Shown: in pieces, positions 8,421 through 42,309 of the stretch
How positions within the stretch are numbered: position 1 is the first letter of the stretch
Layout of the letters: the number at the start of each line of letters is the position of its first letter
Origin: Escherichia coli
GTDB lineage: Bacteria > Pseudomonadota > Gammaproteobacteria > Enterobacterales > Enterobacteriaceae
Strand: one strand, 5' to 3'
Assembly: GCF_001677475.2 (NCBI RefSeq)
Contig: NZ_CP015229.1
DNA length: 64,000 nucleotides
Notes under the pieces: generated by a model
Told to the model about the DNA's origin: nothing
The model's input: only the letters and a program-made list of their open reading frames with translations
Databases searched by the model: none
Translations under genes and position numbers: made by a program

Positions 8421-10493
<2,073 letters not shown>

Positions 10494-36384: not shown

Positions 36385-36418
36385 AATTCACCAAATTTGC
36401 TTAACCAGGATGATAAAA

Positions 36419-37852
36419 ATGACGCAATCTCGATTACATGCGGCGCAAAACGCACTAGCAAAACTTCACGAGCGCCGAGGTAACACTTTCTATCCCCATT
36501 TTCACCTCGCGCCTCCTGCCGGGTGGATGAACGATCCAAACGGCCTGATCTGGTTTAACGATCGTTATCACGCGTTTTATCAACATCACCCGATGAGCGA
36601 ACACTGGGGGCCAATGCACTGGGGACATGCCACCAGCGACGATATGATCCACTGGCAGCATGAGCCTATTGCGCTAGCGCCAGGAGACGAGAATGACAAA
36701 GACGGGTGTTTTTCAGGTAGTGCTGTCGATGACAATGGTGTCCTCTCACTTATCTACACCGGACACGTCTGGCTCGATGGTGCAGGTAATGACGATGCAA
36801 TTCGCGAAGTACAATGTCTGGCTACCAGTCGGGATGGTATTCATTTCGAGAAACAGGGTGTGATCCTCACTCCACCAGAAGGAATCATGCACTTCCGCGA
36901 TCCTAAAGTGTGGCGTGAAGCCGACACATGGTGGATGGTAGTCGGGGCGAAAGACCCAGGCAACACGGGGCAGATCCTCCTTTATCGCGGCAGTTCATTA
37001 CGTGAATGGACTTTCGATCGCGTACTGGCCCACGCTGATGCGGGTGAAAGCTATATGTGGGAATGTCCGGACTTTTTCAGCCTTGGCGATCAGCATTATC
37101 TGATGTTTTCCCCGCAGGGAATGAATGCCGAGGGATACAGTTATCGAAATCGCTTTCAAAGTGGCGTAATACCCGGAATCTGGTCGCCAGGACGACTTTT
37201 TGCACAATCCGGGCATTTTACTGAACTTGATAACGGGCATGACTTTTATGCACCACAAAGCTTTTTAGCGAAGGATGGTCGGCGTATTGTTATCGGCTGG
37301 ATGGATATGTGGGAATCGCCAATGCCCTCAAAACGTGAAGGCTGGGCAGGCTGCATGACGCTGGCGCGCGAGCTATCAGAGAGCAATGGCAAACTCCTAC
37401 AACGCCCGGTACACGAAGCTGAGTCGTTACGCCAGCAGCATCAATCTATCTCTCCCCGCACAATCAGCAATAAATATGTTTTGCAGGAAAACGCGCAAGC
37501 AGTTGAGATTCAGTTGCAGTGGGCGCTGAAGAACAGTGATGCCGAACATTACGGCTTACAGCTCGGTACTGGAATGCGGCTGTATATTGATAACCAATCT
37601 GAGCGACTTGTTTTGTGGCGGTATTACCCACACGAGAATTTAGACGGCTACCGTAGTATTCCCCTCCCGCAGCGTGACACACTCGCCCTAAGGATATTTA
37701 TCGATACATCATCCGTGGAAGTATTTATTAACGACGGGGAAGCGGTGATGAGTAGTCGAATCTATCCGCAGCCAGAAGAACGGGAACTGTCGCTTTATGC
37801 CTCCCACGGAGTGGCTGTGGTGCAACATGGAGCACTCTGGCTACTGGGTTAA
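36419..37852 (+). CDS. cscA: sucrose-6-phosphate hydrolase / invertase (GH32)
   Basis: ORF MTQSRLHAAQNALAKLHERRGNTFYPHFHLAPPAGWMNDPNGLIWF... with GH32 WMNDPNG and RDP motifs; start placed at the ATG following AGGA. Confidence 0.93.
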   Translation: MTQSRLHAAQNALAKLHERRGNTFYPHFHLAPPAGWMNDPNGLIWFNDRYHAFYQHHPMSEHWGPMHWGHATSDDMIHWQHEPIALAPGDENDKDGCFSGSAVDDNGVLSLIYTGHVWLDGAGNDDAIREVQCLATSRDGIHFEKQGVILTPPEGIMHFRDPKVWREADTWWMVVGAKDPGNTGQILLYRGSSLREWTFDRVLAHADAGESYMWECPDFFSLGDQHYLMFSPQGMNAEGYSYRNRFQSGVIPGIWSPGRLFAQSGHFTELDNGHDFYAPQSFLAKDGRRIVIGWMDMWESPMPSKREGWAGCMTLARELSESNGKLLQRPVHEAESLRQQHQSISPRTISNKYVLQENAQAVEIQLQWALKNSDAEHYGLQLGTGMRLYIDNQSERLVLWRYYPHENLDGYRSIPLPQRDTLALRIFIDTSSVEVFINDGEAVMSSRIYPQPEERELSLYASHGVAVVQHGALWLLG

Positions 37853-37859
37853 CATAATA

Positions 37860-38855
37860 TCAGGTGGAACAACGGATCAACAGCGGGCAAGGGATCCGCG
37901 TCACTCTTCCCCCTTCACGACCTTCAATAATATGCAATGCAGCTTCCCGCCCGATAATGTCATGTGGAAGCTGAATTGTGGTCAGCGGCGGTAAAAACAG
38001 ATGCCCGACGCCAACCAGATTATCAAAGCCCATTACGGCGACATCCTGCGGGATACGTACCCCCTTCGCCAGGAGAACCTGATAAGCGACAAAGGCTGCG
38101 CGATCGTTACCACATATCAGAACATCAAAATCTGGTTTGCCAGATTGGAAGTGGGCATTGAGTAAACTTGCGAGATCGGTGTAGTGATCATCACCTGTTG
38201 CCATGTGAAATTGTTTCACCTCAGCCAGATCTCGTCCAGCATCACGCCAGGCCTGCTCAAATCCCTGCCGACGATACCCTGTTGCCAACGCACTTTCCGG
38301 TAGCCAGAAGCATAACGGTTGACGATAGCCCGCCGCGAGCAAATGCTGTGTTGATTCATATTGTGCAGTGTAATCATCAGGGATATAACTGGGTAACACT
38401 GGGTCATCCGCCACACAGTTCGCCAATACAATATTTTCACCATACAGAGACTCAGGCAGCGTGATATGTCGCAGCCCCATTGTAGTATAGATAATGCCAT
38501 CCGGACGGTGGGCAAGCAGCTGACGTGCCGCGCGGGCAGCGTCATCTTCAGAAAAAATATTGATTAAAAAACTATTCCAGCCGAACTCGCTGGCGGTTTG
38601 CTCAATGGCAAGCAGAATATCAACAGAGAAAGGAGTGGTAGCAGTGTCCTGCGCCAGCACGGCGAGAGTCGACGGCTTACGTCCTTGAGCGCGCATCTTA
38701 CGGGCGGAAAGATCAGGAACATAATTCAGGGTCTGGATTGCCTGCAATACGCGGTCACGCGTTGCAGGACGCACAGATTCTGCATTATGCATCACCCGGG
38801 AGACTGTCATCATCGACACTCCCGCCAGGCGTGCGACATCCTTTAATGAAGCCAT
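37860..38855 (-). CDS. cscR: LacI-family sucrose operon repressor
   Basis: Track ORF is 397 aa; start placed at MASLKDVARLAGVSMMTVSRVMHN (HTH), giving 331 aa with a periplasmic-binding-protein-like core. Confidence 0.9.
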   Translation of the reverse strand: MASLKDVARLAGVSMMTVSRVMHNAESVRPATRDRVLQAIQTLNYVPDLSARKMRAQGRKPSTLAVLAQDTATTPFSVDILLAIEQTASEFGWNSFLINIFSEDDAARAARQLLAHRPDGIIYTTMGLRHITLPESLYGENIVLANCVADDPVLPSYIPDDYTAQYESTQHLLAAGYRQPLCFWLPESALATGYRRQGFEQAWRDAGRDLAEVKQFHMATGDDHYTDLASLLNAHFQSGKPDFDVLICGNDRAAFVAYQVLLAKGVRIPQDVAVMGFDNLVGVGHLFLPPLTTIQLPHDIIGREAALHIIEGREGGRVTRIPCPLLIRCST

Positions 38856-39097
38856 ACCCATGCCGTTTGCCGTAAAACGGGCACTGTAGCAGAAACAGAC
38901 GTCACTGGCGAGATCCAACGATATTCTTAACGCCCTATCACCCGACACGGCAATACAATAAAAAATAACAATAATTGCCGGATAATTGTACCCAATTCCG
39001 CCCCTGTTCTCGCCAACGAGTAACCATATAGGCAAGTAAGTAAAACATGCCAACTGACATCGCCAACCTGGATAAGAAAATATAAATATGGATCATT

Positions 39098-39316
39098 GTG
39101 CTGCCGCTGTATCCCGACATCAGCCCGGAAATTATTGCGATTGCTATCGGTTCAGGTGCGATTGGCTGCACGATCGTTACGGACTCGCTTTTCTGGCTGG
39201 TGAAGCAATATTGCGGCGCTACGCTTAATGAAACATTTAAACACTATACGACAGCGACATTTATCGCTTCAGTCGTCGCTCTGGCGGGCACATTCCTGCT
39301 GTCATTTATCATCTAA
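39098..39316 (+). pseudogene. dsdX: 3'-terminal remnant of the D-serine permease gene (GntP family)
   Basis: 72-codon frame ...[71 protein letters not shown] immediately upstream of dsdA; only the last ~2 TM helices of a ~445-aa permease are present. Confidence 0.7.
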
Positions 39317-39333
39317 GCGCAAAGAGACGTACT

Positions 39334-40662
39334 ATGGAAAACGCTAAAATGAACTCGCTCATCGCCCAGTATCCGTTGGTAAAGGATCTGGTTGCTCTTA
39401 AAGAAACCACCTGGTTTAATCCTGGCACGACCTCATTGGCTGAAGGTTTACCTTATGTTGGCCTGACCGAACAGGATGTTCAGGACGCCCATGCGCGCTT
39501 ATCCCGTTTTGCACCCTATCTGGCAAAAGCATTTCCTGAAACTGCTGCTACTGGGGGGATTATTGAATCAGAACTGGTTGCCATTCCGGCTATGCAAAAA
39601 CGGCTGGAAAAGGAATATCAACAACCGATCAGCGGGCAACTGTTACTGAAAAAAGATAGCCATTTGCCCATTTCCGGCTCCATAAAAGCACGCGGCGGGA
39701 TTTATGAAGTCCTGGCACACGCAGAAAAACTGGCTCTGGAAGCGGGGTTGCTGACGCTTGAAGATGACTACAGCAAACTGCTTTCTCCGGAGTTTAAACA
39801 GTTCTTTAGCCAATACAGCATTGCTGTGGGCTCAACCGGAAATCTGGGATTGTCAATCGGCATAATGAGCGCCCGCATTGGCTTTAAGGTGACAGTGCAT
39901 ATGTCTGCTGATGCCCGGGCATGGAAAAAAGCGAAACTGCGCAGCCATGGCGTTATGGTCGTGGAATATGAGCAAGATTATGGTGTTGCCGTCGAGGAAG
40001 GACGTAAAGCAGCGCAGTCTGACCCGAACTGTTTCTTTATTGATGACGAGAATTCCCGCAGGTTGTTCCTTGGGTATTCCGTCGCAGGCCAGCGTCTTAA
40101 AGCGCAATTTGCCGAGCAAGGTCGTATTGTCGATGCTGATAACCCTCTGTTTGTCTATCTGCCGTGTGGTGTAGGCGGTGGTCCTGGTGGTGTCGCATTC
40201 GGGCTTAAACTGGCGTTTGGCGATCATGTTCACTGCTTTTTTGCCGAACCAACGCACTCCCCTTGTATGCTGTTAGGCGTCCATACAGGATTACACGATC
40301 AGATTAATGTTCAGGATATTGGTATCGACAACCTTACCGCAGCGGATGGCCTTGCAGTTGGTCGCGCATCAGGCTTTGTCGGGCGGGCAATGGAGCGTCT
40401 GCTGGATGGCTTCTATACCCTTAGCGATCAAACCATGTATGACATGCTTGGCTGGCTGACGCAGGAAGAAGGTATTCGTCTTGAACCTTCGGCACTGGCG
40501 GGTATGGCCGGGCCTCAGCGCGTGTGCGCATCAGTAAGTTACCAACAGATGCACGGTTTCAGCGCAGAACAACTGCGTAATGCCACTCATCTGGTGTGGG
40601 CGACGGGAGGTGGAATGGTGCCGGAAGAAGAGATGGAGCAATATCTGGCAAAAGGCCGCTAA
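39334..40662 (+). CDS. dsdA: D-serine ammonia-lyase (D-serine dehydratase), PLP-dependent
   Basis: 442-aa [34 protein letters not shown]... with PLP-lysine context SGSIKARGG. Confidence 0.95.
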
Positions 40663-40770
40663 TTAATTTTCAATGCAGCATCGCCATCCTTTCCCTAGGT
40701 GAGCGATGCTGCCGATGGCGCAGGCTTAAGATTCTACCGTCTTACCTGCTATAGCTCTCTCTTTTTACCA

Positions 40771-42309
40771 TCACCCAACACCTTTCGCTGTAAACGGCGG
40801 TTTCGCAAACCAAACCAATACCGTAAGTAAGATAAAAGCAATAGCCGCCATACGGAAAATCTCATTTGCAGAAATTGAAAGTGACTGCTGAGTTATTTCA
40901 TTATTAATTTCATTAAGAACCCCTGAAAGCGAACCATAGTATTTATCCATAATTTGTGACGATGAATTAAACACGGGGTTAAATTGATCGATTGTTGCTG
41001 TCAACTGACTATGGTGTAATGATTCTCGGCGTCCCCACAGCGTCATTGTCAACGACGTACCAACGGATCCTGACAAGGTACGAAAAAAATTACTCATACT
41101 CGAGGCATTGGCAAATTTATTATCTGGCAAACCTGAAAACGAAATCGTTGTTAAGGGTAAAAAGAAACAGGCGACGGCGAATCCCTGAAAAAACTGTGGC
41201 AAAATGATGCCTGTAAAATCAATCGTTGGCATAAATGTCACAGAACGCCAGTAATAGCAAACCGCATACATTAAAAAACTAAATGTCACCAACAACCGCA
41301 TATCAATTTTGTTGCCATAACGTCCTATCAAAGGTGATATTAATAGCGGCATGATGCCGATGGGCGCATAGGCAAGTCCGGCCCATATCGCATTATACCC
41401 CATCGTTTCCTGGAGTAACTGCGGCATAAGGACTATCGCCCCAGAGTAAAATAAATACGCGCATGTGATACTCACAATACCAATGGTGAAATTACGGGAC
41501 TTAAACAAACTGAGATCAAGAATCGGATTCTCTGAGGTCGACTCCCAAATGACTAAAGAAATCAGAGAAATAACTGACACTACTGTTAGTATTATTATTG
41601 TACTCGAGTTGAACCAATCCAGATCGCGCCCTTTATCAAGCATTATCTGCAAGCCACCAACACCGAGCACTAACAGGGTCAGTCCTGGTAGATTCATTTT
41701 GACCGGTGAAGTCTCAGTTTCTCTTCCTTTAAGTAAGGTTAAGCATAATGTCAGAACGATAATCCCCATAGGGACATTGATTAAAAATATCCAACCCCAG
41801 CTAAAGTTGTCACAAATATAGCCGCCCAATATCGGCCCACATATCGGAGCGATAATTACGGTCATTGACCATAATGCCAAAGCAAATGTTCTTTTTTCTG
41901 GCGGATAATTCCTTAATAATAAACTCTGTGACAGTGGAATTAACGGCCCCGCCATTAACCCCTGAACGACTCTAAAAAATATCAACACATCAAGATTGGT
42001 CGATAGGCTACACATTAATGAAGACAGCGAAAAAAAGGTTACTGAAAGTAAAAATAATCTTAATTCGCCTATTCTTTGTGCCAGCCTGCCGGTAACAGGG
42101 ATCGCAATGGCATTTGCTACGCCAAACGAGGTGATAACCCAGGTGCCTTCGTCTGTTGATGCTCCCAGAAAGCCAGATATTGTCGGTATTGCGACGTTAG
42201 AAATAGTGGAATCCAACATTTGCATAAACGTCGCTAATGACAATGCAATAGTGACGCACCATAACGTCCCACCGGTTAATGGTGCCGGAGTTGATTTAGT
42301 GATTGCCAT
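40771..42309 (-). CDS. emrY: MFS multidrug efflux pump (EmrB paralogue)
   Basis: 512-aa 14-TM ORF; start overlaps emrK stop. Confidence 0.9.
   Translation of the reverse strand: MAITKSTPAPLTGGTLWCVTIALSLATFMQMLDSTISNVAIPTISGFLGASTDEGTWVITSFGVANAIAIPVTGRLAQRIGELRLFLLSVTFFSLSSLMCSLSTNLDVLIFFRVVQGLMAGPLIPLSQSLLLRNYPPEKRTFALALWSMTVIIAPICGPILGGYICDNFSWGWIFLINVPMGIIVLTLCLTLLKGRETETSPVKMNLPGLTLLVLGVGGLQIMLDKGRDLDWFNSSTIIILTVVSVISLISLVIWESTSENPILDLSLFKSRNFTIGIVSITCAYLFYSGAIVLMPQLLQETMGYNAIWAGLAYAPIGIMPLLISPLIGRYGNKIDMRLLVTFSFLMYAVCYYWRSVTFMPTIDFTGIILPQFFQGFAVACFFLPLTTISFSGLPDNKFANASSMSNFFRTLSGSVGTSLTMTLWGRRESLHHSQLTATIDQFNPVFNSSSQIMDKYYGSLSGVLNEINNEITQQSLSISANEIFRMAAIAFILLTVLVWFAKPPFTAKGVG

Follow-up and report, generated by a model that had tools for sequence, protein, structure and literature searches.

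At argW in E. coli, the csc genes take the place of dsdC and part of dsdX, a replacement for which later papers credit Jahreis et al. (2002) and Moritz & Welch (2006). The tRNA gene is a hot spot for recombination and integration (PMC4366372, PMC13054288), and the csc junction can be detected by a triplex PCR that combines a cscR primer with a dsdA primer (PMC13054288). The use of D-serine follows the dsd locus, and strains with the csc locus do not grow on this amino acid (PMC13054288). Of 1591 strains, 1561 carried dsdA, and the phylogeny of the gene was similar to that of the core genome (Connolly et al. 2015, PMC4366372). The exchange of dsdC and dsdX for csc genes, which leaves dsdA stranded, is a long-known and very common allele of E. 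coli and not a new one.

The consequences of this arrangement have been described for O157:H7, in which D-serine does not support growth but inhibits it (O'Boyle et al. 2020, PMC7486766). Its intact dsdA gene is expressed at a very low level, and D-serine does not induce it (PMC7486766, PMC13012123); the gene has been termed a "silent enzyme", and fusions of the wild-type upstream region to gfp give low fluorescence (PMC7486766). The gene product works when it is re-expressed, and spontaneous deletions of 1.1 kb and 5.6 kb that remove cscR increase dsdA expression 33-fold, with a gain of D-serine catabolism (PMC7486766). After the deletion of cscR, the reactivated gene is driven by read-through from cscAp or z3622p, and CscR does not repress dsdA directly (PMC7486766). 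Disruption of dsdA in EHEC raises the basal activity of the recA promoter (PMC13012123), and there are hints that the EHEC gene has some low-level function. D-serine is taken up by EHEC via YhaO (Connolly et al. 2016, PMC4699771). In UPEC, CycA is known to transport D-serine, and both CycA and SstT have been implicated in the entry of D-serine into EHEC (O'Boyle et al. 2020, PMC7486766). Thus, the loss of DsdX does not block D-serine entry.

We analyzed a 64-kb stretch of E. coli DNA, hereafter called the window, in which a dsdA gene is located next to a complete set of csc genes (Table 1).

Table 1. Features of the argW-emrY region, with positions given in the coordinates of the window.
Feature	Position	Strand	Evidence and remarks
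argW, tRNA-Arg(CCU)	33454..33528	+	ARAGORN; annotated as tRNA-Arg in the nearest genome; left edge of the variable island
50-aa ORF between argW and cscB	33738..33890	+	Annotated as DUF4942 domain protein in relatives
cscB, sucrose:H+ symporter (oligosaccharide MFS transporter)	33970..35217	-	TIGR00882, 593 bits; RefSeq name cscB
cscK, fructokinase	35289..36203	-	NF006957, 506 bits (cut-off 450)
cscA, sucrose hydrolase (invertase)	36410..37852	+	TIGR01322, 480 bits; same strand as dsdA
cscR, LacI-family repressor of the csc genes	37860..38855	-	LacI-family matches from residue 1; RefSeq name cscR
cscR 5' region	38856..39098		243 bp; ends at the csc/dsdX junction 39098/39099
dsdX remnant, pseudogene, last 72 codons (residues 374-445)	39099..39316	+	NF007395, positions 374-445 of 445
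dsdA, full-length D-serine ammonia-lyase, 442 aa	39334..40662	+	TIGR02035; K118; 4 lineage-private substitutions
emrY	40771..42309	-	Conserved right-hand flank, colinear with K-12

The start of cscA is placed at 36419 in RefSeq, 9 nt further into the gene than in our table. The exact CscR protein was found in public databases, in a cluster that includes the "Sucrose operon repressor" of E. coli W. The cscR gene is divergent from dsdA and convergent with cscA, and the stop codons of cscA and cscR are separated by 7 bp. No NCBIfam match was obtained in a profile search with the short ORF next to argW, which is probably a leftover of an element formerly integrated at this site. To the right of dsdA, emrY and emrK are located on the minus strand, followed by evgAS. 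A perfect 10-bp inverted repeat with an 18-nt loop (GCAGCATCGC ... GCGATGCTGC, 40675-40712) lies between the convergent dsdA and emrY genes and is probably a terminator shared by both. The sole SNP between the window and its closest relatives, at position 40697, falls in the loop of this repeat. Elsewhere in the window, a chaperone-usher fimbrial operon (16098-22565, minus strand) is located at the yfc position, with smrB and sixA on either side. The operon is approximately 78% identical to that of the closest complete genome, with flanks at 95-96%, and at the sequence level it is a divergent fimbrial allele.

The original prediction for this locus described dsdA as an intact gene with the PLP lysine, dsdC as missing, dsdX as reduced to a C-terminal fragment, and the cscR 5' region on the opposite strand as the only upstream DNA. 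Within the window, our analysis agrees with all of these points. The ORF at 39098-39316 encodes 72 amino acids that are 97% identical to residues 374-445 of K-12 DsdX (tblastn), and the same stretch of dsdX is annotated in RefSeq in other strains as a pseudogene ("incomplete; missing N-terminus"). Nucleotide homology to K-12 starts at 39099, and the K-12 locus aligns from its position 8968 onward only; the junction happens to create a GTG start codon at 39098. A tblastn search with K-12 DsdC gave no match anywhere in the 64 kb (best E=1.7), and the dsdC-dsdX intergenic region of K-12 is likewise absent from the window.

In K-12, the DsdC-dependent promoter sits upstream of dsdX. Since dsdC and the dsdC-dsdX control region are both missing from the window, induction by D-serine via DsdC is impossible at this dsdA. 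With no divergent dsdC, and with homology that begins at dsdX codon 374, the locus is not a DsdC-regulated dsdXA operon of the K-12 type. Instead, it has the features of the csc replacement allele: cscB-cscK-cscA-cscR are inserted between argW and dsdA, the common junction lies inside dsdX, only the C-terminal remnant of dsdX is left, and dsdC is absent from the window.

The encoded DsdA protein matched the D-serine ammonia-lyase family TIGR02035 with 807 bits (cut-off 368) and NF002823 with 773 bits (cut-off 246), covering residues 2-442. These full-length matches above the curated cut-offs place it among the D-serine ammonia-lyases. Over residues 1-442, it shares 98.2% of its amino acids with K-12 DsdA, and it can be aligned end to end with PDB 3SS7. 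The lysine K118 within SGSIKARGG is conserved in 113 of 113 orthologues, which were taken from Citrobacter, Kluyvera, Klebsiella, Raoultella and others, and the GSTGNLG motif and the GVGGGPGG loop are both present. We take K118 to be the lysine that forms the Schiff base with PLP, and GSTGNLG and the glycine-rich GVGGGPGG to be motifs of fold-type II PLP enzymes. The DsdA protein of the window is probably still catalytically competent.

The frequency of the allele was estimated from 5426 complete E. coli genomes. The stretch from cscR through the spacer and the dsdX remnant to dsdA was found in 2660 of these (at least 80% of the query covered), and the block from cscB to dsdA in 2646. A dsdC gene was found in 2734 of the 5426 genomes, 202 of which have two dsdC places. 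The genomes with the csc junction and those with dsdC add up to 5394, as compared to 5395 genomes that hold dsdA, in line with a largely either/or polymorphism of the csc junction and dsdC. Some overlap may occur: a second dsdA-matching place was observed in two of 30 sampled csc+ genomes (NZ_CP103645.1, strain 961, handle H58; NZ_CP116123.1, handle H65). This is possibly a second dsdCXA copy, as has been reported for K1 strains.

In dsdCXA+ genomes, every sampled one first matches the window at exactly position 39099. The csc/dsdX junction sequence is identical in all 13 csc+ loci that were fetched, which include O157:H7 F7508 and strains from dogs, chickens, humans and salad. This identity points to a single ancestral event that has been spread by recombination. 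The spacer between cscR and the dsdX remnant varies among csc+ strains, with a 12-bp deletion in three loci (L010-L012; window positions 38918-38929) and a 13-bp deletion in another (L013; 39049-39061), and a 21-bp deletion was observed within the dsdX remnant of locus L014. The dsdA gene is intact in L010, L012, L013 and L014, and L011 has a separate frameshift in dsdA.

None of the 5426 complete RefSeq genomes searched exceeded approximately 98.8% identity to any tested segment of the window. Two draft assemblies (GCA_016118665.1 and GCA_018682815.1) differ from the window by a single mismatch in 7.3 kb. Judged from these identities, the lineage appears to be without a representative among complete RefSeq genomes. 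We rejected the idea that the window had been artificially mutated or originates from another species, given that third codon positions account for a disproportionate share of the differences and that near-identical drafts exist. The exact DsdA protein is public (ANO90143.1 and others) and is listed in 47 collection blocks; it has a csc context in all six places listed, with 17 further places grouped as similar.

Based on these comparisons, we consider it highly probable that the window carries the common csc allele with a stranded dsdA gene that is weakly transcribed, non-inducible, probably competent and potentially reactivable, in a strain that is sucrose-positive and D-serine-sensitive. 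We directly observed how the locus is built, how frequent it is in the population, that its junction is shared and that dsdA shows no clear decay. The silence of the gene, the sensitivity to D-serine and the potential for reactivation in the window strain would follow from the published experiments on O157:H7. The original prediction had left it open whether dsdA is silent, constitutive or decaying; for O157:H7, this had already been resolved by experiment, with the gene being silent but functional.

According to this explanation, one ancestral event would have placed cscB-cscK-cscA-cscR where dsdC, the dsdC-dsdX control region and dsdX codons 1-373 had been, and homologous recombination would then have spread the csc junction across the species. 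The dsdA gene would have become stranded with the loss of the DsdC- and D-serine-dependent promoter of dsdXA, with 235 nt from the 3' part of dsdX and the leader of the divergent cscR gene left upstream. As the junction is the same as in O157:H7, transcription of dsdA is predicted, by extension, to be low and non-inducible. The strain would then not grow on D-serine and would be inhibited by it, and it is expected to use sucrose, while CycA, SstT and YhaO would continue to import D-serine. Deletions that remove cscR could re-awaken dsdA by letting the co-oriented cscA promoter read into the gene. The ORF may have been kept intact because csc and dsd states exchange often relative to the rate at which dsdA diverges, and a low-level role that is independent of DsdC may also have contributed.

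In EHEC, the 5.6-kb deletion that reactivates dsdA is flanked by the repeat CCGGATAA (PMC7486766). The cscR-proximal copy of this 8-bp repeat is present in the window at 38978-38985, and no second copy was found within 33000-39400. Thus, the exact route of the 5.6-kb deletion in EHEC may be unavailable here.

It is unlikely, in our judgement, that dsdA in the window lineage (ANO90143.1) is something other than simply silent. In that case, either SNPs at the junction would have created a promoter that provides constitutive detoxification of D-serine, or selection across csc+ strains would maintain the gene for a low-level housekeeping role. Such a role, hinted at by the phenotype of the EHEC dsdA mutant (PMC13012123), might for example be to limit endogenous D-serine or basal SOS stress.

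Another explanation is that the intact ORF is in an early stage of decay, drifting towards loss of function as a silent gene under relaxed selection, which we find quite improbable. We compared the dsdA gene of the window with those of 13 csc+ and 10 dsdCXA+ loci. Four amino acid substitutions (T208M, T243R, S325N and A376T) and four synonymous changes are private to the window branch relative to the sampled csc+ and dsdCXA+ sequences, a ratio that could signal decay. All four substitutions are located at positions that are 97-100% conserved among the 113 orthologues, and the site of T243R is invariant. However, 76% of all DsdA positions are equally conserved, so that the chance of four out of four is approximately 0.33, which is not significant. 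Moreover, the window allele is found unchanged in at least 24 contigs with differing flanks, and the stranded dsdA of O157:H7 is, as noted above, still functional.

Inactivating mutations in csc+ strains, which the original prediction had raised as a test, were found in one of the 13 fetched loci: a 1-nt deletion at nt 220 causes a frameshift in strain 2013C-4830 (NZ_CP027325.1, locus L011). The gene is intact in the other 12 loci and in the window, that is, in 13 of 14 csc+ sequences. The frameshift is in line with decay, but dsdA was also found to be interrupted by an IS3-family element in a dsdCXA+ genome (NZ_CP061754.1, O18ac:H14 873.10, handle H90), and inactivation thus occurs in both backgrounds.

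We also carried out the dN/dS comparison that had been proposed across csc+ strains. The mean pairwise dN/dS (Nei-Gojobori) was 0.090 for csc+ and 0.047 for dsdCXA+ sequences, an approximately twofold difference in the direction expected from decay, and 0.060 between the groups, although these pairwise values say little about selection in the csc state since csc+ and dsdCXA+ alleles intermix. The two classes are interspersed in a neighbour-joining tree of dsdA, with the genes of the csc+ strains S19-141 and TUM12355 being 0 nt from that of K-12 MG1655, and another csc+ strain differing by 5 nt from the dsdCXA+ B2-like strain 83972. The DsdA accession WP_000426426.1 was found in both classes. 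Thus, most of the divergence in dsdA is older than the csc or dsd state that each strain now has, which explains why the ORF looks healthy. Among variants restricted to one class, we counted 27 synonymous and 19 nonsynonymous variants in csc+ sequences and 19 and 7, respectively, in dsdCXA+ sequences, as compared to 75 and 13 for shared variants. The difference in nonsynonymous share between the csc+ and dsdCXA+ classes was not significant (Fisher p=0.31; 13 and 10 sequences). The csc+ variants suggest a trend toward relaxed constraint that is indistinguishable from noise in this sample, and there is no clear decay of dsdA in the sampled csc+ sequences.

Expression of dsdA could instead be coupled to sucrose, with induction of cscAp reading through the antisense cscR gene into dsdA and making the deaminase conditionally sucrose-inducible. 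We rate this as less probable than early decay. Both genes are on the plus strand, cscA up to 37852 and dsdA from 39334, and a scan of 37700-40900 revealed no terminator-like site on this strand from 37853 to 39281. In line with such coupling, cscAp drives dsdA after the deletion of cscR, and the tolerance is lost again when CscR is provided in trans (PMC7486766). However, GFP was low with a wild-type fragment spanning cscAp to dsdA (PMC7486766), and read-through would produce approximately 1.5 kb of untranslated RNA, inviting Rho-dependent termination, and would run into convergent transcription from cscR. The failure of csc-locus strains to grow on D-serine, mentioned above, also speaks against sucrose coupling.

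Very unlikely is a lineage-specific sigma-70 promoter at the csc/dsdX junction, created by the change 39057 G>A and perhaps 39073 G>A, which would provide constitutive dsdA expression and tolerance to D-serine in a strain without DsdC. The candidate site is located on the plus strand at 39054-39081 (CTGACA, 16 nt, GAAAAT) and has 9 of 12 matches. The change at 39057 converts CTGGCA into CTGACA and thereby raises the site from 8 to 9 matches, so that it reaches the scan threshold in the window lineage only. It is private to this lineage, since CTGGCA is present in all 13 other csc+ loci, and dsdA transcription may for this reason deviate from that in O157:H7. The site is the sole promoter-like match in 37700-40900, and the same sequence is found in at least six related assemblies. 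However, nine matches are few, and shuffled sequence gave on average 3.7 promoter-like matches, as compared to the one observed in the scan. As a sequence match, the site may serve as a lead but is no evidence by itself. The 243-bp spacer contains five private SNPs in the window lineage, which is close to the neutral rate, given four private synonymous changes in approximately 316 sites in dsdA; two further private SNPs are located in the dsdX remnant, at 39226 and 39242. The private substitutions in DsdA and the improved promoter-like site are both likely to be neutral.

The least credible explanation is that regulated D-serine catabolism is restored by a dsdC gene, or by a complete dsdCXA copy, at another place in the genome: second copies have been reported in K1 strains, "dsdC often retained" has been stated for some csc+ isolates, and second dsdA-matching and dsdC places were seen in our own survey, but the counts of dsdC and of the csc junction sum almost exactly to the number of dsdA genomes, and the dsdC-dsdX control region is absent beside this dsdA, leaving DsdC in trans with no known target here. 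A dsdC gene elsewhere that drives this dsdA, the refuting result suggested in the original prediction, is thus mechanistically unlikely with the DsdC-dependent promoter region deleted. DsdC in trans could act on its own copy only, and a second complete dsdCXA copy would confer D-serine use by itself and not through the copy in the window.

The common csc allele with a stranded, latent dsdA, which we favor, can finally be compared with the described systems. The csc allele of O157:H7 EDL933/TUV93-0 has the same gene order (argW, cscB, cscK, cscA, cscR, dsdX remnant, dsdA, emrY), an identical junction, the same 72-codon dsdX remnant, an intact dsdA gene encoding 442 amino acids and no dsdC. It differs in that dsdA of the window is approximately 1.4% diverged, with four private substitutions in DsdA and five private SNPs in the spacer. 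The cscB, cscK, cscA and cscR genes are also arranged in the same order and orientation at argW as in the csc regulon of E. coli W / EC3132, and no structural difference from the window was found. The dsdCXA locus of K-12 and UPEC has the 235 nt directly upstream of dsdA and the emrYK-evgAS flank in common with the window, together with a DsdA protein that is 98.2% identical; unlike the window, it also contains dsdC, the dsdC-dsdX control region and codons 1-373 of dsdX. The choice between csc and dsdCXA at argW is an established niche determinant in E. coli, with D-serine use favoring strains from urinary tract infections and meningitis, and its loss accompanying LEE-positive intestinal pathogens. 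By analogy with these systems, the window strain would be assigned to the sucrose-positive, D-serine-sensitive class with a latent dsdA gene.
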